Positions 4,350 through 15,146 of a DNA stretch of 34,038 nt are shown in pieces (the first letter of the stretch is position 1; each line of letters opens with the position of its first letter). The translations under genes were made by a program, and so were the position numbers. The notes under the pieces are model-generated. The model was not told where the DNA came from. It saw nothing but the letters and a program-made list of their open reading frames with translations, and ran no database searches. This DNA comes from Thermoplasmata archaeon (lineage in GTDB: Archaea; Thermoplasmatota; E2; UBA202; JdFR-43), in NCBI GenBank assembly GCA_008297865.1, contig VBQI01000001.1, forward strand, positions 1-34,038. The letters are read 5' to 3'.

Positions 4350-5621
4350 ATGAGCATTCTTGTAAAAGATTCTATTATTGTAACTCAAAATGCAGATAGG
4401 AAGATAATAGAGGGAGATGTATATATTGAAGATGACAAAATAGTTGAAGTGGGAAGTGTAAGTGTTGAAGCAGATTTTGTTTTAAAAAATAAAATTGTTT
4501 TGCCTGGTTTAATCAACATGCATACTCATCTGCCAATGACTTTACTGCGCGGCTATGGCGATGATTTGCCACTAGAAGAATGGCTTACTACGAGAATATG
4601 GCCAGTAGAAGCTAAGCTGAGGGAAAAGCACATCGCAATAGGAACAAAACTTGCTTTTATGGAAATGGTTTCAACAGGCACAACCTGTTGCAATGACATG
4701 TATTTTTTTGAGGATATAATTGCAAAGGAGGCAAAAAGTTTTGGAATGCGTTGCTATGCAGGCTTCAGCATTATTGATTTTGATACACCTGAAATGAAAG
4801 CAGAGCATCTGCTGCCAGAATGTGAGAAGTTCGTTAAAAAATGGAAAGATGATGAAATTGTAAAGCCAGTTGTTGCTCCTCATTCAACATATACATGCTC
4901 TCCAGAAACCTTGGAAAAGGCAAATGAGATTGCGGGAAAATATGATACATTTATCCATATCCACTGTTCAGAAACAAGGAAAGAAGTTTATGATGTTTTG
5001 AACAGATATGGCTCTCGTCCTTTAGAACAGATAAAAAAGTATGGATTGCTTACCGGCAAAACAATGCTCGCTCATTGCGGATGGATAACTAAGGGAGAAG
5101 TGAAAGAGATAGCTAAAGCAAAAGCATGCGTTATTCACAATCCAGTGAGCAATATGAAACTTGCTACAGGTGGCTACACACCATTGCCAGAATTGATGAG
5201 CGAGAAAGCATGCATTGCCTTAGGAACAGATGGGGCAGCGAGCAACAATAAGCTTGATATGTTTGAAACAATGAAGTTTACTGCACTCATTCACAAGCAC
5301 CATAGATGGGATGCAAGCATTGTAAAGGCTCAGGAAGTGCTGGATATGGCTACAATAAATGCAGCAGAGTTTTTAGGCTTAAATGCAGGAAGCATTGAAG
5401 AAGGCAAGTTTGCAGATATAATTTGCTTAGACAAGATATCTCCAAATTTGATTCCTCGTCATAATATCATTAGCCATTTGGTATACGCTGCAAGTGGCTT
5501 CAATGTCAGTGATGTAGTTATAAACGGAAAAGCAATAATGCTTGACAAAAAGTTTATGAACATTAACGAAGAGAAAGTTTATGAAGAGGCAGAGGAGGCG
5601 AAGGAGGAGTTAATTGAATGA
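4350..5621 (+). CDS. mtaD: Amidohydrolase, 5-methylthioadenosine/S-adenosylhomocysteine (5'-deoxyadenosine) deaminase-like
   Basis: Typical MtaD/DadD N-terminus 'LPGLINMHTHLPMTLLRGYGDDLPLEEWL' with an HxH metal motif, 'HCSET', and 'GTDGAASNN'. Length 423 aa. Confidence 0.8.
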   Translation: MSILVKDSIIVTQNADRKIIEGDVYIEDDKIVEVGSVSVEADFVLKNKIVLPGLINMHTHLPMTLLRGYGDDLPLEEWLTTRIWPVEAKLREKHIAIGTKLAFMEMVSTGTTCCNDMYFFEDIIAKEAKSFGMRCYAGFSIIDFDTPEMKAEHLLPECEKFVKKWKDDEIVKPVVAPHSTYTCSPETLEKANEIAGKYDTFIHIHCSETRKEVYDVLNRYGSRPLEQIKKYGLLTGKTMLAHCGWITKGEVKEIAKAKACVIHNPVSNMKLATGGYTPLPELMSEKACIALGTDGAASNNKLDMFETMKFTALIHKHHRWDASIVKAQEVLDMATINAAEFLGLNAGSIEEGKFADIICLDKISPNLIPRHNIISHLVYAASGFNVSDVVINGKAIMLDKKFMNINEEKVYEEAEEAKEELIE

Positions 5622-6200: not shown

Positions 6201-6799
6201 ATCTCCACCACTTTACCAGCGAGGCATTCTATTGTGTTAGGAAAAGCTTCTATCTGCCTTTTAAGCTTAGTGCAGTGGCAGGGCATTACCAGCGGATATT
6301 TTCTCAGTAATTCTATCTCCTTAAAACCATGAAATCCTCCTATAATAGCATATATCTTGCCATATTTTTCTGCTATTTTTATCACATTTTTAAGTCCATT
6401 ATGACTGCATCCAGTGAAAATTACTATCTTGTCATCATCTTTAACAATTAAAGATTGTTCCCCATTTATTTCTCCAGTTGAAATAAAATTTGGAAGAAAT
6501 TCCTCATTACCTACTTTCATTCCTTTTAAATTAGAAGAAGGTGGAACATAAATTTTTCCTTCATATTTTAGTTTTAATTTTTTCAGCCCACCTGCATGAT
6601 CCCAATGGCTATGAGATATAAAAATGGCGTCTATATCATTTAAGCTAATCCCGAGCTTTTTCATATTATGTTTTAGCACACCGTATCTTCCTCCAGTATC
6701 GAAAAGCAAATTTATACTATGCTCTATGAAACATGAAAAACCCCAGCTTGCTTTAAAGCCCTGCAAAGCCTTATTGTCATAAACAATTTTAACAATCAT
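6197..6799 (-). CDS. MBL-fold metallo-hydrolase (COG1237-like)
   Basis: 'WGFSCFIE...LLFDTGG' and 'ISHSHWDHAGGL' (HxHxDH). ATGA overlaps at both ends. Confidence 0.75.
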   Translation of the reverse strand: MIVKIVYDNKALQGFKASWGFSCFIEHSINLLFDTGGRYGVLKHNMKKLGISLNDIDAIFISHSHWDHAGGLKKLKLKYEGKIYVPPSSNLKGMKVGNEEFLPNFISTGEINGEQSLIVKDDDKIVIFTGCSHNGLKNVIKIAEKYGKIYAIIGGFHGFKEIELLRKYPLVMPCHCTKLKRQIEAFPNTIECLAGKVVEI

Positions 6800-7431
6800 T
6801 CTTTCACCTTTGTAGGCTTTTTCAATTGCTTTAACTTTTCCTTAATGAATTTGTCAATACATTCATCTATGCCCTCCATTGCCATATATATTTCCACACC
6901 TTCATCTCCAAGCATATGAAAGGCAATTTCTCCAATTTCCTTTGTTATTAATGCATCTATGCCTTCTGAAATCAAAAATTTTGCGCATGAAAGTCCAGCT
7001 CTCATCTTTTTCTCCTTATATGGATTTTTAATCTCCCTTTTTTCAACAATCTTTCCTTCCTCTCTGTCCACTTTGAAAACTAAAAATTTTTCTGCCCTTC
7101 CAAAATGCTCAGAAACTTTATTGTCATCGATGGGAATTGCCGCTTTTGCATATCTTTCCTTATACGGCTCAATATGAATGGTGAAGAAATCCACTTCTTT
7201 CACTTCTTCTTTTATTTTTTCCTCTATCTTTCCTGCTATTTCATGAGCTTTACTCACATCTATACCTTTTTTAACAAAAATCTTTACCTCTCCAAATAAA
7301 AATGGGCCAGATTTCCTGAGCCTCAAATCATCAAATCCTCCTATATTTTCCATCTCATTTAGTGTATCTGTTATTTTCTCCTTTGCATATTTTGGAGAGA
7401 AATCCATGAGGGCGTAAATTGCGTCCTTCAT
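6796..7431 (-). CDS. Cation diffusion facilitator C-terminal cytoplasmic domain fused to a NifX-like (COG1433-type) domain
   Basis: The N-terminal half resembles a CDF C-terminal domain (DAIYALMDFSP...HEIAGKIEEKIKEEV...FTIHIEP). The C-terminal half carries the NifX-like signature 'SEHFGRAEKFLVFKV...GIDALITKEIGEIAF'. Confidence 0.65.
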   Translation of the reverse strand: MKDAIYALMDFSPKYAKEKITDTLNEMENIGGFDDLRLRKSGPFLFGEVKIFVKKGIDVSKAHEIAGKIEEKIKEEVKEVDFFTIHIEPYKERYAKAAIPIDDNKVSEHFGRAEKFLVFKVDREEGKIVEKREIKNPYKEKKMRAGLSCAKFLISEGIDALITKEIGEIAFHMLGDEGVEIYMAMEGIDECIDKFIKEKLKQLKKPTKVKE

Positions 7432-7436
7432 GCTTT

Positions 7437-8024
7437 CTATGCCAACTCTAAAATTAAAATTGATATTCCGATGCTGAAAATTCCTTCAACATATCGAACA
7501 TTGTAAAAATCCAGCGTGATACCCATCAGAACAAATATGGAAGAAATAGCATCTACTTTCCTTTCATGTCCTACAGCTATCAACGACTGCATTCCCTGCC
7601 TTTTCCCTACTTTGCATATATGAATGGCAATTACATAGGAAACTGCAATAGATATGATTGCTGTTAAAATGGCTATATATGGTATTTTTAGGGATGGAAT
7701 AGCATACAACTTTTTATAGCCCTCCATGGCTATTTCATATCCTGCAAAAAATATCAAAAAAGAAATGAACAAAGTTGCCAAATTCTCAGCTTTGTAGTAA
7801 CCATATGGAAATCTCTCATCTGGAGCTTTTGAGGCAATTTTTATTCCGATTGCAGCTGTAAAAATGACAAGCAAATCAGAGGCAGAATGCATTGCATCAG
7901 AGATAAGCAATAAGGAACCAGAAAAATAGCCAACTAAAGCCTTAAGCAAAGCAAGGAACAAGGTTGCTAGTCCTGCAAGCAAAGAAATTCTGTAACCCTC
8001 CTTAAACACATTTTGCTTTTTCAT
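7437..8024 (-). CDS. Cation diffusion facilitator (CDF) transmembrane domain; separated from its C-terminal domain by a frame change
   Basis: 'LKALVGYFSGSLLLISDAMHSASDLL' is a typical CDF TM1-2 metal-site motif. Multiple TM helices. It ends at TAG 7437-7439, and the continuation is in another frame. Confidence 0.7.
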   Translation of the reverse strand: MKKQNVFKEGYRISLLAGLATLFLALLKALVGYFSGSLLLISDAMHSASDLLVIFTAAIGIKIASKAPDERFPYGYYKAENLATLFISFLIFFAGYEIAMEGYKKLYAIPSLKIPYIAILTAIISIAVSYVIAIHICKVGKRQGMQSLIAVGHERKVDAISSIFVLMGITLDFYNVRYVEGIFSIGISILILELA

Positions 8025-8872
8025 TTTAACTTATTTTCAATTTTATTCCATATTTTACGCATTGATTCTGCAATATTTTCGTCATACTCAACAATATTCA
8101 ATCCCTTTACCATTGCTTCAGTAAATTTTTTATTGAAAGGTATTTTGCCAACAATATCAATACCCTTCTCTTTACAAAACCTCTCAATTTTTTCAGTCAT
8201 CCCCTCATTTATATCATATTTATTCACCACAACAACGGCTCTGATTTTAAAATGCTCCGCCACGCTAAGTATCCTTTCCATATCATGAATGGCTGCCATT
8301 GTGGGTTCCGCAACTATGATAACCAAGTCTGTATTCCCAATGGAAGCTATAACTGGACAGCCAATGCCGGCAGGAGAATCAATTATAATCAAATCTATTC
8401 CCTTCTTTTCAGCAACTTCCCTTGCTTTTTGTCTTACCTGAGCAACTAATTTGCCCGATGCCTCCTCTCCTGCTTCCAGAAGTCCGTAAACGAAGTTCCC
8501 AAATCTTGTGTTTGCAGTGTATATGTGCCCTGTTACTCTTTCATACATACTTATGGCATTTACTGGACAAACAAGCGTGCATACCTTGCAACCCTCGCAT
8601 TTCTCTTCCATTACCTTAAAATTTTCTATTGCGTTGAATCTGCAAGCTCTCTGACAAGCTCCACATTCAGTACATTTCTCCTCATCTATTCTTGCCACCT
8701 TCATTCCTTTATATGGTATCCTTTCCATTATCTCGGGCTTAAGAATGAGATGAAGATTGGGAGCATCAACATCGCAGTCAGCAAAAACTGCTTCAGTTAA
8801 TGAAGCAAAAGATGCAACTATGCTTGTTTTACCAGTTCCTCCTTTTCCACTTGCCACAGCAATTTGCCTCAT
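8021..8872 (-). CDS. MinD/ParA-superfamily P-loop ATPase with inserted 2x[4Fe-4S] ferredoxin motifs (COG1149-like)
   Basis: Deviant Walker A 'ASGKGGTGKTS'. 'CTECGACQRACRFNAI' and 'CEGCKVCTLVCPVNAI'. Confidence 0.85.
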   Translation of the reverse strand: MRQIAVASGKGGTGKTSIVASFASLTEAVFADCDVDAPNLHLILKPEIMERIPYKGMKVARIDEEKCTECGACQRACRFNAIENFKVMEEKCEGCKVCTLVCPVNAISMYERVTGHIYTANTRFGNFVYGLLEAGEEASGKLVAQVRQKAREVAEKKGIDLIIIDSPAGIGCPVIASIGNTDLVIIVAEPTMAAIHDMERILSVAEHFKIRAVVVVNKYDINEGMTEKIERFCKEKGIDIVGKIPFNKKFTEAMVKGLNIVEYDENIAESMRKIWNKIENKLK

Positions 8873-9615
8873 TCTGGTCTCCTCCTTTTCATTTCTTCAT
8901 AATCAATTGGTTTAACTTTTGGTGGATAAGAGGAATAAACATTTATTGTATTTAGCCCGTGAAAATGTTCCTCTACATCAAAAATTTCCCCCTTGCTTAA
9001 AGGCGGAACAGGTGATTTCCTTAGAGGTGTATTAATCTGCACATCATCTGGCTTAATTTCTCTTGCCAAATCAGCCATTTCTTCTGCATATTTTTTATTT
9101 TCTTTAACAAACATCATTTGGAGGGAAAATTTCTTTGCCTTTTTCCTCACCTCCTTGATACCTTCAATCATTTCATCAAATTTTATTTTTTCATGCGGTC
9201 TGTTAATTTTCTCAAAAATTTTTTTGTCTGGAGCATCAAGCTTCGCAACAATCCAGTCAATTTTTAATAAATCTTCCATAACATCTTCCCTGCTAAAAAG
9301 AGATGAATTTGTTAAAATAGCAATAGGCAATCCAAATTTTCTTGCATAGTCTGCAGAAAATCCCAAATTTCTTGCCAGGGTTGGCTCTCCTAAGCCAGAA
9401 AAGGTAATAACATCTGCTTCTATTTCATGAATGTTATCTAACTCTTTTTTTACTTGACTATTCTCAACAAATATTTTTCTTTCAATCGTCTTATGTTCTG
9501 TTCTGCCAAGCTGGCAGTAAATGCAATCAAATGAGCAGAATTTATCCACGCTTATTAAATCGATGCCAAGCGATTTACCTAGACGCCAAGAAGCAACAGG
9601 GCCATAAACAATCAT
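8869..9615 (-). CDS. Radical SAM protein (short, no SPASM-type extra Cys cluster)
   Basis: 'YGPVASWRLGKSLGIDLISVDKFCSFDCIYCQ' contains the CxxxCxxC motif. 248 aa. ATGA overlaps with both flanking MinD-like genes. Confidence 0.8.
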   Translation of the reverse strand: MIVYGPVASWRLGKSLGIDLISVDKFCSFDCIYCQLGRTEHKTIERKIFVENSQVKKELDNIHEIEADVITFSGLGEPTLARNLGFSADYARKFGLPIAILTNSSLFSREDVMEDLLKIDWIVAKLDAPDKKIFEKINRPHEKIKFDEMIEGIKEVRKKAKKFSLQMMFVKENKKYAEEMADLAREIKPDDVQINTPLRKSPVPPLSKGEIFDVEEHFHGLNTINVYSSYPPKVKPIDYEEMKRRRPE

Positions 9616-10427
9616 TTTATTGCCTCATACATTTCAATGAAATTCCTCTTCCATTCTTTCATTTCTTTTACAAATGGAATGCCAGCTGAATACAACTCTG
9701 CAATTTTTCTGCTGTAGGGAATTTTCATTAAAATTTCTATACCATCTTCCTTGCAGTATTTTTCAACGCCCTCATCTCCTATACCATATCTATTTATGAT
9801 CACACCAAATGGAATTTCAAGCTTTCTCACTATATTTATAGCTATTTTCAAATCATGTAGTCCAAAGGGTGTTGGCTCAGTAACTAATATAACGAAATCT
9901 GCTCCATGCATTGCTTCTATTGCAGGACATCCATTGCCAGGAGGTGCATCTAAAATTGATGTGTTTTGCTTATTCACATAACTCTTAAGTTTGGTTATGA
10001 TAGGCACCGCTCTGGCTTCTCCAATGTTTAGAATGCCTTGGTATATTTCCACTTCATTTTTTCCGTGATATATCTCTCCTATTTTCTTTTTTCCTTCTGT
10101 TATTGCATCATGCTCGCAAACTATTTTGCACCCTCCACATCCTGAGCATAATTCAGGAAAGAAAAGAATGTCAGAAGGAAGAACAGCTATCGCGTTATAT
10201 GCACAAAATTCAGCACATTTCTTGCAAAAAGTACACTTATTTAAGTCAAAAGAAGGATTCATTAAAAAAACGTCTTCTATTTTCTGCAGATTTGCCTTTA
10301 TAAAAATATTTGCATTCGGCTCTTCAACATCGCAATCATAAAGTTTGGCATCAGTGGCTAAAGCTAAATTTACCGCAACCGTTGTCTTGCCCGTGCCTCC
10401 CTTTCCAGATGCAACCGTAATTATCAT
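9612..10427 (-). CDS. MinD/ParA-superfamily P-loop ATPase with inserted 2x[4Fe-4S] ferredoxin motifs (COG1149-like), paralog 2
   Basis: 'ASGKGGTGKTT'. 'CTFCKKCAEFCAYNAI' and 'CSGCGGCKIVCEHDAI'. Confidence 0.85.
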   Translation of the reverse strand: MIITVASGKGGTGKTTVAVNLALATDAKLYDCDVEEPNANIFIKANLQKIEDVFLMNPSFDLNKCTFCKKCAEFCAYNAIAVLPSDILFFPELCSGCGGCKIVCEHDAITEGKKKIGEIYHGKNEVEIYQGILNIGEARAVPIITKLKSYVNKQNTSILDAPPGNGCPAIEAMHGADFVILVTEPTPFGLHDLKIAINIVRKLEIPFGVIINRYGIGDEGVEKYCKEDGIEILMKIPYSRKIAELYSAGIPFVKEMKEWKRNFIEMYEAIK

Positions 10428-11302: not shown

Positions 11303-11683
11303 TTAAATATGATGATGTCTGTCCCTAAACGCATGCTCTCCACAAGCATCACTTATGGAAGCATTCTTTAATTCTCCTCTCATGAAAGCATCTAGTGCAT
11401 CTCTAACAGTGCCAGTTGCGCCAATGTATACTTCTATACCAAAATCTTGGAACATGTTTATTGCTCTTCTTCCAAGACCCCTGCATATCATCACCTTTAC
11501 ACCTTCTCTTGCAAGTAATTCAGGCGGATATCCCTGCCCACCCATGTGGTGGCTTGTATTGGGCACAACTCTCAACTCTTTTGTTTCAAGGTCAATGATG
11601 GTGTATGTTGGCACTCTCCCAAAATGCTCCCCAATTTGTTCATCCAAGCCTTTATTACCAAGGGTGGGAAAGGCTATCTTCAT
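11303..11683 (-). CDS. NifX/NifB-like iron-molybdenum-cofactor-binding domain protein (COG1433-like)
   Basis: 'MKIAFPT...[15 protein letters not shown]...[15 protein letters not shown]'. The ATG at 11683 makes an ATGA overlap with the upstream stop; the track start at 11707 overlaps the upstream ORF. Confidence 0.8.
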
Positions 11684-11865
11684 GCCCTCACCATGGGCAT
11701 ACCACACCTAGGACATCTCATCTGGCGGCAAGGTATGCCAGGAGTATGGGGCATTCTGTAGCCGCAGCTGGGGCATACACATTCTCCTACAGGACCTGCT
11801 CCTGCTCTGCCTCCTGCCCCTCTGCCTTTTCCCATGCCTGCTCCTCTTCCTGCTCCCATTCCCAT
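11680..11865 (-). CDS. Mini-protein: Gly/Arg/Met-rich N-terminus plus CxCxxC...CxxC zinc-ribbon
   Basis: 61 aa: [61 protein letters not shown]. The ATG directly follows the upstream TAA, and there is an ATGA overlap downstream. Confidence 0.6.
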
Positions 11866-12111
11866 TTAATCACCTTCCATTCTTTCAATCCATTCTTTCG
11901 TGCCTAGTAGCATGCTTTCCATCATTTTCAGTTGATCCATAATCATCATTAGCTCCACTTCTTCTGGTATTGGCTGAAATGGTTGCATTTGCATTGGCGG
12001 AGAAAGCTTTTTACTTTCTTTTCCTCCAACCAATTCAATAGCTCCTTGTGGGCATACATTAATGCATAATCCACAGCCAATACATCTTTCTTCTATAATT
12101 CTCGCCTTCAT
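11866..12111 (-). CDS. Single-motif [4Fe-4S] 'half-ferredoxin' with Pro/Met-rich linker and amphipathic helical tail
   Basis: 'CIGCGLCINVCPQGAI' is followed by 'SPPMQMQPFQPIPEEVELMMIMDQLKMMESML'. ATGA overlap with the upstream gene. Confidence 0.7.
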   Translation of the reverse strand: MKARIIEERCIGCGLCINVCPQGAIELVGGKESKKLSPPMQMQPFQPIPEEVELMMIMDQLKMMESMLLGTKEWIERMEGD

Positions 12112-12701
12112 TCTTTTAGCTCCTCCAACCTCTTTTTGATGGCAGATAGTAAGTCTTCGATGCGCTTTATCTCCTCTTCAATCATCTTTAGCTCTTCTTC
12201 TTTGCTCATTTGCATCGGCATTGGCGGAGAAGGCCATGAGGGATAGTATGGCGGATAAGATGGCGGAGGGTATGACGGCGATGGTGTTGTTGGATATGGA
12301 GGTTGTGGGTAGGGTTGCGTTGGTTGAGGAGGAGCAGAAGCAATGCTACCTCTTAACTCTCCTTTTAAGTATTTTTCTACAGCATCTTTTACCTTTCCTT
12401 GAGCTACCACCATTTCTACGCCAGCTTGCTGAAGAATTGCTGTAACATTAGGCCCAAAATTTCCTGCTATAACTGCTTTTGCTCTCTGGCTAACGATCCA
12501 TTGCCCCGTCTGTATGCCAGCCCCATGAACTGCAGAGGTAAATTGATTGGGCGTAACTTCGACATTTTTTATTTCATTTCCTTCTACTTCCACTATTGTA
12601 AATGTTTGACATCTTCCAAACACTGGAGAGACATCATCTTCCAAACCACCTTTATTAGTTGCTACTATTATTTTCATTTTATCTCCTCCTATTATTTTCA
12701 T
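12108..12701 (-). CDS. NifX-like (COG1433-type) domain + Pro/Tyr-rich linker + coiled-coil (DUF5320-like) tail
   Basis: 'MKIIVATNKGGLEDDVSPVFGRCQTFTIVEV...AVIAGNFGPNV', then 'PPQPTQPYPQPPYPTTPSPSYPPPSYPPYYPSWPSPPMPMQM', then 'EEELKMIEEEIKRIEDLLSAIKKRLEELKE'. Two in-frame ATGs (12701 and 12677) were created by a 24-bp tandem duplication; 12677 is probably the ancestral start. Confidence 0.75.
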   Translation of the reverse strand: MKIIGGDKMKIIVATNKGGLEDDVSPVFGRCQTFTIVEVEGNEIKNVEVTPNQFTSAVHGAGIQTGQWIVSQRAKAVIAGNFGPNVTAILQQAGVEMVVAQGKVKDAVEKYLKGELRGSIASAPPQPTQPYPQPPYPTTPSPSYPPPSYPPYYPSWPSPPMPMQMSKEEELKMIEEEIKRIEDLLSAIKKRLEELKE

Positions 12702-12714
12702 TTTATCTCCTCCT
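12667..12714. repeat. Perfect 24-bp tandem duplication covering SD + start codon of the NifX-like gene
   Basis: 'attattttcattttatctcctcct' at 12667-12690 and 12691-12714. On the minus strand this reads AGGAGGAGATAAAATGAAAATAAT twice. Confidence 0.9.
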
Positions 12715-12855
12715 TAACTGCTCAAGCCTTTTATTTATTTCTGCCAGCCTTGCCTCCAGCATCGCCTTCTCTTGTTCAAGCATCGCCATTTCTAACTCTG
12801 GCGGCATGAAAGGCGGCATGTATGGCATCCAAGGCATGAAATATGGCCAGTACAT
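12703..12855 (-). CDS. 50-aa mini-protein: aromatic/Pro/Met-rich N-terminus + coiled-coil (DUF5320-like) tail
   Basis: Hand-translated; too short for the ORF track. Sequence: MYWPYFMPWMPYMPPFMPPELEMAMLEQEKAMLEARLAEINKRLEQLRRR*. GGGTGA SD-like motif 6 nt upstream of the ATG. Same strand as the operon. Confidence 0.55.
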   Translation of the reverse strand: MYWPYFMPWMPYMPPFMPPELEMAMLEQEKAMLEARLAEINKRLEQLRRR

Positions 12856-12907
12856 TTTTTCACCCTAATAAATTTTAAGGAAAGAGGGAAGCTTGCTTGT
12901 TATACGG

Positions 12908-13117
12908 TTACCACCATGGATAGTAGTATGGGTACCAGTAATAGCTGTAATATGGGTACATCCAGGGCATATAACTATAGTATTGATAGTAGTATGGGTA
13001 CCAGTAATAGCTGTAATATGGGTACATCCAGGGCATATAACTATAGTATTGATAGTAAAGCCATGGCATTATGTATGGCATCATCAGCCATCCATATGGT
13101 CCCATGCCAAACGGCAT
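12908..13117 (-). CDS. 69-aa Tyr/Trp/Pro/Met-rich mini-protein with no charged residues
   Basis: MPFGMGPYGWLMMPYIMPWL(YYQYYSYMPWMYPYYSYYWYPY)x2 YYPWW. By my count 28 Tyr, 11 Pro, 9 Met, 8 Trp, and no D/E/K/R/H. GGAGGTGG SD upstream of the ATG. Operon strand. Confidence 0.55.
   Translation of the reverse strand: MPFGMGPYGWLMMPYIMPWLYYQYYSYMPWMYPYYSYYWYPYYYQYYSYMPWMYPYYSYYWYPYYYPWW
12919..13050. repeat. Perfect 66-bp tandem direct repeat (2 copies plus a 7-nt start of a third) inside the Tyr-rich mini-ORF
   Basis: 'gatagtagtatgggtaccagtaatagctgtaatatgggtacatccagggcatataactatagtatt' starts at 12919 and again at 12985. 'gatagta' recurs at 13051. Confidence 0.9.
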
Positions 13118-13120
13118 TTA

Positions 13121-13333
13121 TTACCACCTCCATGGCATGTAATATGGATAGCTATACATTGGCCAATATGGCATGCGCCACCATCCTCTTGGTAGCCATG
13201 GAAATCGCCTGCAGAATGGATATGGGTTTCCTCTGCCCCATCCTGGCCACCCTGACCATGCTGACCATCCGTAACCAGGCCATCCATAACCATACCATCC
13301 AGCACGCCATCCAAATCCTCTTCCCCAAGGCAT
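13121..13333 (-). CDS. 70-aa Trp/Gly/Arg/Pro/Tyr-rich basic mini-protein (N-terminus reminiscent of DUF5320)
   Basis: MPWGRGFGWRAGWYGYGWPGYGWSAWSGWPGWGRGNPYPFCRRFPWLPRGWWRMPYWPMYSYPYYMPWRW. By my count 14 Trp, 13 Gly, 8 Arg, and no acidic residue. GGTGAT SD 4 nt upstream. It ends in a double stop (TAATAA) immediately before the next ATG. Confidence 0.55.
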   Translation of the reverse strand: MPWGRGFGWRAGWYGYGWPGYGWSAWSGWPGWGRGNPYPFCRRFPWLPRGWWRMPYWPMYSYPYYMPWRW

Positions 13334-13414
13334 TTTATCACCTGATGGAATATATAGTAAGAAATATATAAAAATTTCGCCAAACTTTTATATAATTTTT
13401 TCTATATAAGCATA
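13334..13414. promoter_or_regulatory. Divergent promoter region between the mini-protein operon and the DUF134 gene
   Basis: 81-bp AT-rich spacer with several TATA-like boxes: TATATAG 13351-13357, ATATATAAAAATTT ~13365-13378, TTTTATATAA ~13386-13395 and CTATATAAG 13401-13409. The last two lie about 6-29 nt upstream of the + strand ATG. The reverse complement AAATTTTTATATAT faces the minus-strand operon. Confidence 0.4.
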
Positions 13415-13705
13415 ATGCCAGGGAGGAGAAGATGCAGAAGATGGGTTGAAATGCTACCTTCTGCAAGCGTTTTCATTCCCAATATTCCATATAATGGCGT
13501 AGTTTTTTTGCGTATAGAAGAATTTGAAGCTTTTCGCCTTGTGGATTATCTTGGTTTAACTCAGCATGAAGCAGCAGCACAAATGGGTATATCTCAGAAA
13601 GCATTATGGAATGATTTAAAAAATGCGCATTTTAAAATTGCGGATGCCATCATAAATGGAAAGGCAATAAGAATAGAAGGAGGAAATTATGCACTTATAA
13701 GATAA
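13415..13705 (+). CDS. DUF134 (UPF0251) family HTH protein, putative transcriptional regulator
   Basis: 'MPGRRRCRRW...' and 'LRIEEFEAFRLVDYLGLTQHEAAAQMGISQKALWNDLKNAHFKIADAIINGKAIRIEGG' match my recollection of the DUF134 consensus (sigma-70 region 4-like HTH). Confidence 0.8.
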   Translation: MPGRRRCRRWVEMLPSASVFIPNIPYNGVVFLRIEEFEAFRLVDYLGLTQHEAAAQMGISQKALWNDLKNAHFKIADAIINGKAIRIEGGNYALIR

Positions 13706-13724
13706 TGAAAAGAATAACGATGCG

Positions 13725-14258
13725 TCATCCCTCATCAATTTCTATCTCAGTATATTCTTCTAAAAGGCTTATGGCTTCTGCTGTCAACTCCTTTATTTTT
13801 TCTGCTGCTTCCTTGATGGAGTCACGGTCATTAATATCCATTGCTCTGATGTGCAGGAATATGCCAAGCTCCCAGCAATAGAAAATCATTTCAGCTTGGC
13901 TTGCATCTGAATTCACATCTTGGATTTTCTTTATCGGATTGAGGAGCATGAGCGAGATGAAACTTGTGGCGCTAGCTCCGCCAAAACCAAGTCCTTCAAC
14001 TATCTTTAGCCAGTCATTGTTTGCAGGAAGAGCAGTCAGCAATGCAATCGTGAGAAAGAATAACCCGACTGCAAAAATTGCAATTGAAAAAATATAAATG
14101 ATGTATTTCGCTTTTCTTAGCTCTCTACAGAATTTTCTAATTTTCTCTTTCAAAATAGGCATTTCCTCCATCAATATTTTCATGATAATGCTATTAAGCT
14201 GTAAATTAGCTCTATCTCTATCAAATTTTTCTATCATCCTGTCTAATTTTTTTATCAT
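13725..14258 (-). CDS. Hypothetical membrane protein with helical/coiled flanks
   Basis: 177-aa ORF. Central TM segments (YIIYIFSIAIFAVGLFFLTIALLTAL; GLGFGGASATSFISLMLL). No recognised family. Confidence 0.5.
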   Translation of the reverse strand: MIKKLDRMIEKFDRDRANLQLNSIIMKILMEEMPILKEKIRKFCRELRKAKYIIYIFSIAIFAVGLFFLTIALLTALPANNDWLKIVEGLGFGGASATSFISLMLLNPIKKIQDVNSDASQAEMIFYCWELGIFLHIRAMDINDRDSIKEAAEKIKELTAEAISLLEEYTEIEIDEG

Positions 14259-14384
14259 ATTTTTTATTTTCCATTTTCAAAAGAATAATGGAATCTCTCT
14301 CCATGCGTTTTGCATTTATAAACCAATTTCGCCATGAGAAATAAATTCAGTAATTTTTTTATTTTTGATGTGCTTCACTAGGAT

Positions 14385-15146
14385 ATGTCCAAGCGATTGT
14401 ATCTTATAATAGCGGTTTTGATTATATTAATTTCAGTTTCTTTACTTTATGTTATATGGAAAGAAAAGCAAGAAGAGAAAGAAATAATTAGAGTAAAGAA
14501 ATTTCAACCCCGCTTGTTAAAGCAAGGAGCACTTCTATTGAAAAAAGAGGATTTTGAACAACTTTCTCCGTGGCAAAAATATGTTACTCCAAATGATTCA
14601 GAAGTAAGGAAGCTTGCTAATAGAATGAAAAATGTAAAGGAAGCATACAGAGAAGCTGTTCGGTGGACATGGGTATCAGATTCAACACTCCATGGAGTAG
14701 ATGAGAAATGGATTATGCCTCATGAATTTCTGGCAGACACGCCAAATTATGCTACAAATCCTGTTAAAGGTAGAATTGTAAGTGATTGCGAAGAACAGGC
14801 ATACACATTAGTCTCTCTTTTGAGAGCCATGGGCATAAAAGCAGAAAATGTTCGTGTTGTCGTGGGTGAGGTAAATTTCAGTGGACAAACAGGAGGGCAT
14901 GCATGGGTTGAAATTTATGAGGATGGAAAATGGCACGCATTAGATGCAACAAGCGGTCCATACTGGGATGATGAAGAAGCAAAATTGTACAAAAGGAGAG
15001 GCTATCCCTATAACTATTTCAAGAGATATTCCTATCCTTCAATTGAAATATGGGGATATTTTAATGACATATATTATTACAACCCTATAACAAAAGAGGG
15101 AAATGCTCCCCCCAACTGGGCATATTATCCTGTCTACCCACCATAA
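14385..15146 (+). CDS. Transglutaminase-like cysteine protease-fold protein, N-terminal TM anchor
   Basis: TM 'LYLIIAVLIILISVSLLYVIW'. Candidate Cys-His-Asp triad: 'SDCEEQAYTLVSLLRAMGI', 'GGHAWVEIY', 'WHALDAT'. Confidence 0.7.
   Translation: MSKRLYLIIAVLIILISVSLLYVIWKEKQEEKEIIRVKKFQPRLLKQGALLLKKEDFEQLSPWQKYVTPNDSEVRKLANRMKNVKEAYREAVRWTWVSDSTLHGVDEKWIMPHEFLADTPNYATNPVKGRIVSDCEEQAYTLVSLLRAMGIKAENVRVVVGEVNFSGQTGGHAWVEIYEDGKWHALDATSGPYWDDEEAKLYKRRGYPYNYFKRYSYPSIEIWGYFNDIYYYNPITKEGNAPPNWAYYPVYPP

Follow-up and report, generated by a model that had tools for sequence, protein, structure and literature searches.

Three consecutive small open reading frames (ORFs) stand at the head of a minus-strand operon in the first 34,038 nucleotides of contig VBQI01000001.1 from a Thermoplasmata archaeon (assembly GCA_008297865.1; this whole stretch is hereafter called the window). 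Comparison with related loci indicates that ORF1, ORF2 and ORF3 are genuine minus-frame genes under purifying selection, that ORF1 is a member of an unannotated small-protein family with the core GNPYPFCRxFPWLPRxWW, and that ORF2 and ORF3 are the N- and C-terminal halves of one ancestral DUF5320 gene that was split in the clade of the window. We hold these statements on the reality and anatomy of the genes with high confidence. More tentatively, we propose that the three products may be intrinsically disordered accessory subunits of an anaerobe-specific assembly for the handling of metal sulfides (Fe-S), a mechanism that we find plausible as a whole without being ready to call it probable.

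ORF1 (13121..13333, minus strand; 70 amino acids in length) would encode a basic mini-protein (isoelectric point, pI, 10.3) rich in Trp, Gly, Arg and Pro, with 14 Trp, 13 Gly, 11 Pro, 9 Tyr and 8 Arg residues, one Cys and neither Asp nor Glu. ORF2 (12908..13117, minus strand; 69 amino acids) contains no charged residue and is 41% Tyr (28 Tyr, 11 Pro, 9 Met and 8 Trp), and ORF3 (12703..12855, minus strand; 50 amino acids) consists of a Met/Pro/Tyr/Phe-rich head followed by a charged heptad tail. The comparison set, i.e. the long ORFs elsewhere in the window, contains 1.4% Trp and 4.4% Tyr. An earlier reading of this DNA, made from the letters alone (the sequence-only reading), had described three minus-strand ORFs of these lengths, each with a Shine-Dalgarno (SD)-like motif, and we find them where it had placed them, with GGTGAT upstream of the ORF1 start codon, GGAGGTGG upstream of that of ORF2 and GGGTGA upstream of that of ORF3. 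A recount also reproduced its figures for Trp in ORF1 (14/70) and Tyr in ORF2 (28/69), as well as the acidic-free ORF1 and the uncharged ORF2.

All three ORFs are open in six more divergent Thermoplasmatota (loci L005, L007, L008, L009, L010 and L015) despite many in-frame indels. The ratio of non-synonymous to synonymous differences per site (pN/pS; Nei-Gojobori, relatives versus window) was 0.06-0.37 for ORF1, 0.05-0.25 for ORF2 and 0.10-0.32 for ORF3, and the variable sites at codon positions 1, 2 and 3 numbered 10/6/25, 7/3/17 and 7/5/24 respectively. This third-position variation, the low pN/pS and the frame kept through the indels argue for coding in the minus frame. The sequence-only reading had suggested both substitution patterns and possible minus-frame breaks in homologous loci as ways to judge the frame; with pN/pS at 0.05-0.37, a bias towards codon position 3 and no break in the six relatives, both speak for the frame that it had chosen. 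In addition, three further public contigs that have this gene neighbourhood encode a protein identical to that of ORF1.

ORF1 and ORF2 lie in one shared frame across TAATAA with the next ATG following directly, as had been noted before; the junction in the window (13115-13123) reads TGG-TAA-TAA-ATG. The two ORFs are also in the same frame in each of the six relatives, and the spacers, in the window as in these, contain nothing but stop codon(s) and, at the most, a single sense codon (TAATAAATG, TGAAAGATG, TAAAAGATG or TAAATG); their lengths differ by multiples of 3. Judged from this arrangement, the in-frame junction could permit termination-reinitiation coupling or low-level readthrough.

The ORF1 family and its gene neighbourhood

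The ORF1 core motif occupies residues 35-52 (GNPYPFCRRFPWLPRGWW; 13178..13231, minus strand), where it corresponds to invariant columns in alignment A1 and holds the sole conserved Cys. A search of 5.8 billion proteins gave 20 homologues of ORF1, all of which have GNPYPFCRxFPWLPRGWW in common, and a profile built for ORF1 matched 81 clusters at 50% identity among 1.84 billion cluster representatives. Members of the family display a similar layout, with a variable Gly/Arg/Trp-containing N-terminus, the near-invariant single-Cys core and an aromatic C-terminus rich in Tyr, Pro and Gly; members from other phyla carry an aromatic tail of their own (median 31 amino acids, 29% aromatic). Relatives were confirmed by tblastn in 153 stretches from anaerobic archaea and bacteria in a scan of one genome per GTDB species, in which the motif served as the retrieval pattern. 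Archaea among the best 80 loci include Thermoplasmatota, Methanophagales (ANME-1), Methanosarcinales, Bathyarchaeia, Hadarchaeota and Asgard archaea, and the bacteria include Atribacterota, Dehalococcoidia, Bipolaricaulota/Acetothermia, Thermotogae, WOR-3, Planctomycetia and Omnitrophota. Fifteen of the 18 core positions, Cys included, are identical in 72-76 of the 76 unique family sequences, and the pattern-free profile search brought up a few variants of the core, e.g. PNLSPYCRRFPGMPRGWW. ORF1 itself has the core with its single Cys, is shorter than the approximate 130 amino acids that bound the family and lies beside a NifX-like gene, all of which place it in the family.

None of the coiled-coil-free family members matched Pfam (0/21), ORF1 matched nothing in NCBIfam, a PDB profile search with the family returned no match at E<=10, the viral contigs searched contained no relatives and the motif strings returned nothing from a full-text literature search. 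AlphaFold2 modelled ORF1 from a 21-sequence alignment with a mean predicted local distance difference test score (pLDDT) of 48, rising to 54-61 over the core, so ORF1 is predicted to be disordered. What is new here is a strongly conserved 18-residue motif, absent from the Pfam and NCBIfam copies searched, on tiny proteins for which disorder is predicted.

Gene neighbours were counted at 79 ORF1-family loci (5 kb on either side) and at the 29 of full flanks (-3 to +7 kb). NifX-like genes are near-universal (76/79 loci; 29/29 with full flanks), followed by MinD-type ATPases with a ferredoxin insert (MinD-ferredoxin; 64/79 and 26/29), small ferredoxin-type proteins (59/79 and 24/29, a count that may include the ferredoxin inserts of the MinD proteins), DUF134 proteins (50/79 and 20/29), zinc-ribbon proteins (47/79 and 16/29), ORF3/DUF5320-type coiled-coil proteins (39/79 and 17/29) and ARMT1-like proteins (12/79 and 6/29). 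The modules found at these loci are also joined in various ways. In at least five clusters a 2x[4Fe-4S] ferredoxin domain precedes the ORF1 core in one fused protein, and a coiled coil is present in 5 of the 76 complete family members. Four of these five, together with another protein of L038 in which the core is degenerate, pass the cut-off of PF17253, the Pfam model for DUF5320 (28.1-35.6 bits); the fifth, from L014, gave no match. In P0002 (79 amino acids in length), a natural variant, the ORF1 core runs on in frame into an ORF2-type tail. No NifX fusion was seen among the family profile matches inspected. The neighbouring NifX-like ORFs, for their part, have a tail of at least 30 amino acids in 70 of 131 cases, mostly GRG/GMG-rich (Gly/Arg) and many ending in an ORF3-type coiled coil; NifX domains joined to GRG repeats and a coiled coil occur as fusions in other genomes, and L014 fuses a NifX domain to a zinc-ribbon module homologous to a 61-amino-acid protein encoded in the window.

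One metagenome-assembled genome (MAG) carries the DUF134 and ORF1 genes twice, the copy at L006 (JAPDJQ010000133.1) being 87% identical to that at L004 (JAPDJQ010000044.1). The L006 copy lies at a contig end and the other 5.3 kb of its contig are unmatched to the window; it may stem from a second locus or from a bin of mixed strains.

ORF2 and ORF3 as parts of a DUF5320-type gene

In more distant genomes a single unsplit gene occupies the position of ORF2 and ORF3 upstream of the NifX-like gene, starting with MPFGMGP.GW..MPY and ending in an ORF3-type coiled coil with the pattern PPE.E..MLE.EK..LE.RL.EI..RL.EL (L047, 58 amino acids in length; L028, 75; L053, 72; L024, 90; L042, 95). The unsplit proteins of L047, L024 and L042 score 31.0-32.6 bits against PF17253, above its gathering cut-off of 27 bits. 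A protein of L013 (60 amino acids) has PPYIMPWIYY of ORF2 and the coiled coil in one polypeptide, without the MPFGMG start. In the window, ORF2 (MPFGMGPYGWLMMPYIMPW...) is the N-terminal half of this gene, and ORF3, with its DUF5320-type coiled coil, the C-terminal half: residues 11-47 of ORF3 align to PF17253 positions 63-99 (E=8.4e-5; 24.1 bits, under the cut-off), whereas ORF1 and ORF2 gave no PF17253 match at E<=1. The earlier description of ORF3 as a head fused to a coiled-coil tail is confirmed. The likeness to DUF5320 proteins that the sequence-only reading had drawn for the N-termini of the first two ORFs is sound for the wider family, by way of the unsplit homologues and the ORF1 relatives that bear a coiled coil, but not for ORF1 and ORF2 themselves, and ORF3 falls short of the cut-off (24.1 versus 27).

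The fission site is the ORF2-ORF3 spacer (12856..12907, minus strand), which contains a conserved TTAGG(G)TGA SD motif; ORF3 thus has its own conserved SD and ATG, and its split orthologues are 38-66 amino acids in length. The frames of ORF2 and ORF3 differ between relatives, so the two would be translated separately. ORF2 in the six relatives combines a conserved start (MPFGMGPYGWLMMPYIMPW) and a conserved end (YYYPW(W)) with a hypervariable Tyr-rich middle. Its total length ranges from 44 to 69 amino acids across the window and relatives, the changes arising through in-frame tandem repeats, and on very close contigs it measures 47, 48 or 69 amino acids with the frame always kept. The window itself holds a perfect tandem duplication of 66 nt (22 codons) within ORF2 (12919..13057, minus strand; 2.1 copies with 100% match in Tandem Repeats Finder), of which L001 (99.7% identical) has one copy and L003 two. 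The exact ORF2 sequence is not on record in the protein look-up and the homologue search gave a single match, because gene callers miss ORF2; its relatives were recovered from the DNA of related loci. The locus is in this sense a case for small-protein annotation, with gene fission and in-frame repeat expansion proceeding under purifying selection.

DUF5320 proteins and the proteins described here have in common a Gly/aromatic N-terminal part of low complexity, a linker of Pro and aromatic residues and, at the C-terminus, a coiled coil of heptads (...EQE..ML......LE..L..I.KRL.EL), as well as a shared gene neighbourhood (NifX-like, MinD-ferredoxin and DUF134 genes). The coiled coil (positions ~63-99 of the model) is present in ORF3 only, ORF1 and ORF2 being without it. 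They differ in that the GNPYPFCRxFPWLPRxWW module of ORF1 lies outside the Pfam model and in that the gene is here split in two, with a Tyr-rich spacer grown to 41% Tyr. When the ORF1 core was compared, profile against profile, with the TGLPGW-type module found in neighbouring DUF5320-like genes, the match was not significant (probability 0.6%), and the two are distinct modules, not diverged copies; no canonical TGLPGW-type DUF5320 gene is present in the window. In the literature DUF5320 is mentioned only in two unrelated papers and the family is essentially unstudied. Its proteins are now tied to NifX-like/MinD-ferredoxin clusters (the orange protein, or ORP, complex and IssA).

Several irregularities were seen in the repeat region and around the fission site. 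L002/L004 and the window share 99.0% identity on the upstream side of the ORF2 repeat but only 88.0% on its downstream side, with the breakpoint inside the Tyr-rich repeat (window 12982-12991; L002 1655-1733), which may be due either to strain recombination or to an assembly chimera. L008 has an N-run assembly gap precisely in the Tyr-rich repeat of ORF2, ~160-260 nt past the ORF1 stop codon (locus position 7711), with the repeat end duplicated on both flanks; the region seems hard to assemble. In L017, a Thermoplasmata MAG, an MPFGMG-type gene is cut by an in-frame TGA or a frameshift just 5' of the coiled coil (…LYSLS*PELPKEQEIAMLEDEK…), ~420-600 nt past the stop codon of the ORF1-family gene (locus position 5322), and this interruption may be an independent split or a sequencing error. 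The ORF3 orthologues P0100 and P0101 carry PF27405.1 in a precomputed Pfam column, an accession absent from the Pfam copy searched, and ORF3-like proteins may therefore have recently been given a Pfam entry of their own.

A putative role in metal-sulfide handling

The gene directly downstream of ORF3 (12108..12701, minus strand) encodes a NifX-like protein (IPR003731 / PF02579) with a Pro-rich linker (20 Pro in 44 amino acids) and a DUF5320-like coiled-coil tail. In the PDB it is matched best by MTH1175, with further matches to several other uncharacterised NifX-like proteins and to the Desulfovibrio ORP protein 2WFB (E=6e-8). It is followed by a half-ferredoxin of 81 amino acids (11866..12111, minus strand), in which one CxxCxxCxxxCP motif precedes a Pro/Gln/Met linker and a coiled-coil tail, and by a basic protein of 61 amino acids (11680..11865, minus strand) with a Gly/Arg-rich N-terminus and a Cys-rich, zinc-ribbon-like C-terminus. 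These two small genes, as well as the 18-residue motif of ORF1 and the fission of ORF2 and ORF3, go beyond the sequence-only reading. Further downstream on the same strand lie a second NifX-like gene (11303..11707, by domain match) and two genes for MinD/ParA-type ATPases with an inserted 2x[4Fe-4S] ferredoxin domain (9612..10427 and 8021..8872; CbiA/ParA and Fer4 domains; Orp3/Orp4-like), between which is encoded a radical S-adenosylmethionine (SAM) protein of 248 amino acids with PF04055 only (8869..9615, minus strand). An ARMT1-like phosphatase, a metallo-β-lactamase (MBL)-fold protein and a methyltransferase are also encoded in the operon. ORF3, the adjacent NifX-like protein and the half-ferredoxin share one plan, a Pro/aromatic linker and then a heptad coiled coil, and the latter two are acidic (pI 5.4 and 4.8, respectively) versus a pI of 10.3 for ORF1.

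Two known systems resemble this set. IssA of Pyrococcus furiosus, an iron-sulfur/thioferrate storage protein, consists of a NifX-like domain and a tail of 70 residues (PMC5524996), and MTH1175 was the template used to model it. After a Pro-rich stretch the tail turns cationic, aromatic and rich in Gly; it contains 11 Pro, 7 cationic, 14 aromatic and 15 Gly residues, shows a repeating pattern of Trp, Gly and Arg, and has been proposed to wrap anionic thioferrate and drive nanoparticle formation (PMC5524996). In ORF1, likewise 70 amino acids long, there are 11 Pro, 8 Arg, 26 aromatic and 13 Gly residues; like the IssA tail it is associated with an IPR003731 NifX-like domain, and the adjacent NifX-like protein has a Pro-rich region like that of IssA. 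The difference is that the tail is covalently attached in IssA, whereas here the candidates are separate polypeptides and the NifX-like domain is on the next gene (12108..12701). The second system is the anaerobe-specific ORP complex of Desulfovibrio vulgaris, in which Orp3 and Orp4, two MinD-like Fe-S proteins, are purified together with Orp8, which is NifX-like, the complex being completed by the small Fe-S protein Orp5 and by MrpORP; a link of ORP proteins to cell division and to polar localisation has been reported (PMC6345978). The window likewise encodes a pair of paralogous MinD-like ATPases bearing two [4Fe-4S] motifs, NifX-like single-domain proteins and a small Cys-rich protein, in a cluster that is also anaerobe-specific, and the 61-amino-acid protein may be the counterpart of the small [2Fe-2S] protein Orp5 of ORP operons. 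Unlike the ORP operon, the window has no MrpORP equivalog (partial matches to NF041136 reach 45-50 bits against a cut-off of 450) and no sigma-54/OrpR regulator, in place of which stands the divergent DUF134 gene; PMC6345978 describes no Trp/Tyr-rich mini-proteins, and no Desulfovibrio locus is among the best 80 ORF1-family loci.

We infer from these likenesses an assembly, related to the ORP complex and IssA, of NifX-like cluster-binding proteins and MinD-type ATPases with ferredoxin inserts, to which the products of ORF1, ORF2 and ORF3 would be disordered accessories. The coiled-coil tails may bundle ORF3, the NifX-like protein and the half-ferredoxin into hetero-oligomers. The basic ORF1 would dock through its invariant motif onto a conserved partner or a cluster site, where Cys41 is a possible ligand, and ORF1 together with the Tyr-rich ORF2 would supply in trans the cationic, aromatic and Gly-rich tail that IssA has in cis. 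Such a tail may wrap anionic iron-sulfide species and drive higher-order assembly. If IssA-like function in trans is true, it would broaden the known ways in which anaerobes store and traffic iron sulfide.

Several points weigh against this proposal. The likeness of ORF1 to the IssA tail is one of composition and not demonstrated homology. The neighbouring NifX-like protein (pI 5.4, 1 Cys, 0% Gly in the last 40 residues) fails the published criteria for the IssA clade, namely a pI of >= 9, <5 Cys and >=20% Gly in the last 40 residues (PMC5524996 supplement); ORF1 taken alone has a suitable pI (10.3) and a single Cys, yet Gly makes up only 10% of its own last 40 residues. Single comparisons of the coiled-coil tail of ORF3 with those of its neighbours gave E=0.002 and 0.018, a modest similarity, and ORF1 has no coiled coil, so that its recruitment is purely something we infer. 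The invariance of the core over the 79 loci is inflated, as these were fetched with that very motif as the pattern. A radical SAM gene in about half of the full-flank loci leaves room for a role in which the peptides are modified. Finally, translation, interaction, metal binding and assembly are all read here from genes and predictions. We accordingly do not file the system as a member of either the IssA or the peptide-precursor systems discussed below.

A more specific version of the assembly, which we regard as speculative, is that ORF1 (Arg/Trp/Gly) and ORF2 (Tyr/Pro/Met/Trp) form a two-component 'sticker' matrix that stores iron sulfide or hands over clusters. Cation-pi and pi-pi contacts would make the two co-assemble into the matrix of a condensate or nanoparticle, which coiled coils of the ORF3 type would tether to the NifX-like and ferredoxin-like proteins; the matrix would template polymeric iron sulfide, with the invariant single-Cys motif anchoring the inorganic chain. 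The self-assembling aromatic scaffold that was among the roles suggested in the sequence-only reading is consistent with the shuffling of modules across the family and with the IssA precedent. If the matrix exists, it would represent a widespread Fe-S storage or delivery route of anaerobes that relies on disordered mini-proteins.

ORF1 may instead be a partner or activator of the MinD/ParA-type ATPases, comparable with MinE or the N-terminal peptides of ParB; its invariant motif, which contains Arg, would bind the ATPase dimer and control ATP hydrolysis or localisation, with ORF2 and ORF3 as adaptors. The frequent co-occurrence of MinD-ferredoxin genes (64/79; 26/29) fits this, as does the core, a short and basic stretch, disordered and extremely conserved in the manner of a linear docking motif, and so does the link of ORP proteins to cell division and polar localisation (PMC6345978). 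The association with NifX-like genes is, however, no looser (29/29), the fusions known so far join the family to ferredoxin domains and not to ATPases, and neither similarity to MinE or ParB peptides nor a Pfam or PDB match was found; we consider this role unlikely.

Slightly less likely still, in our judgement, is that the three peptides are precursors of a ribosomally synthesised and post-translationally modified peptide (RiPP) or of a peptide-derived redox cofactor, as PqqA and MftA are for pyrroloquinoline quinone (PQQ) and mycofactocin, a role also raised in the sequence-only reading. Cross-linking or excision of Tyr, Trp or Cys residues would fall to the radical SAM enzyme, and completion of the product to the MBL-fold protein and the methyltransferase. 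Short Tyr-containing peptides at the head of an operon with a radical SAM enzyme (and an MBL-fold protein, as for PQQ) are indeed common to both situations; the peptides are short, rich in Tyr and Trp and contain a conserved Cys, and genes for a radical SAM protein (22/79 loci; 15/29 with full flanks), an MBL-fold protein (14/79 and 10/29) and a methyltransferase (8/79 and 5/29) recur near family members. The radical SAM protein is also weakly similar to PqqE and to peptide maturases in NCBIfam, all far under the cut-off: it reaches that of no NCBIfam maturase (e.g. 23.7 versus 381 for PqqE). The radical SAM gene is missing from about half of the full loci, at which NifX-like (29/29) and MinD-ferredoxin (26/29) genes are near-universal, and its product has PF04055 only, with no SPASM/twitch domain and no RiPP recognition element (RRE)/PqqD domain found in the operon; the patchy occurrence of the enzyme and the absence of SPASM and RRE domains weaken the precursor idea. 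In addition, the E-x3-Y motif of PqqA and the C-terminal Val-Tyr of MftA are absent from ORF1, ORF2 and ORF3, the fusions of family members to ferredoxin domains and coiled coils are unusual for consumable precursors, and the Tyr-rich segment of ORF2 is free in length and sequence, unlike a defined core peptide.

Very improbable is a role as regulatory leader peptides, functionless as products, whose runs of Trp and Tyr codons sense charged tRNA or the aromatic supply and so tune the operon. The position at the 5' end of the operon, the rare amino acids and the tight spacing of ORF1 and ORF2 are as expected for leaders, but purifying selection also acts at non-aromatic positions, the 18-residue motif is conserved in archaea and bacteria alike, functional domains are joined to family members and the operon has no link to aromatic amino-acid metabolism. 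That the minus strand is not coding at all, the DNA being repeat-rich and non-coding or the true genes being the long antisense ORFs of the plus strand (12893..13195, 100 amino acids; 12916..13371, 151 amino acids), has next to no probability: gene callers did skip ORF2 on related contigs and called antisense ORFs of 79 and 100 amino acids on two of them, and tandem repeats are present, but the minus-frame codon-position pattern and low pN/pS reject a non-coding reading, the antisense ORFs, which we take as by-products of composition, do not stay open in L010 and L015, distant phyla have homologues in the minus-frame sense only, and Rfam offers no match (a scan of 11500-14500 at E<=1 gave one chance-level snoRNA match, outside the ORF region).

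Flanking regions and further observations

Upstream of ORF1, the stretch 13334..13705 (plus strand) comprises a divergent promoter region with a conserved TATA-like TTTATATATTTCTTACTATATATTCC and then the DUF134 (UPF0251) putative regulator gene (13415..13705, plus strand, by domain match). TTTATATATTTCTTACTATATATTCC is strongly conserved among relatives and resembles an archaeal TATA box; it lies within the 81-nt divergent region 13334-13414 that is common to ORF1 and the DUF134 gene. The GGTGAT SD motif of ORF1 is missing from L010 and L015, which suggests that the ORF1 leader is very short there or that none exists. A scan for promoters and terminators gave fewer matches than shuffled sequence, with bacterial models that are uninformative for an archaeal host, and the window contains no tRNA.

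At the other end of the operon, a cation diffusion facilitator (CDF) transporter is split into a membrane domain (8024..7437) and, 5 nt apart, a cytoplasmic ZT_dimer domain (7431..6796; minus strand) that is fused to a third NifX-like domain. This CDF unit (6796-8024) is absent from L002 and was seen in 2 of the 79 loci.

The NifX-like gene downstream of ORF3 has its SD motif, its ATG and its first four codons repeated by a perfect 24-nt tandem duplication at 12665-12714 (MKIIGGDKMKIIVATNK). The duplication is present in the window and in L001 and absent from L002 and L003. As a result, the NifX-like gene has two possible in-frame starts (12701 and 12677), of which the second ATG, at 12677, is probably the true one.

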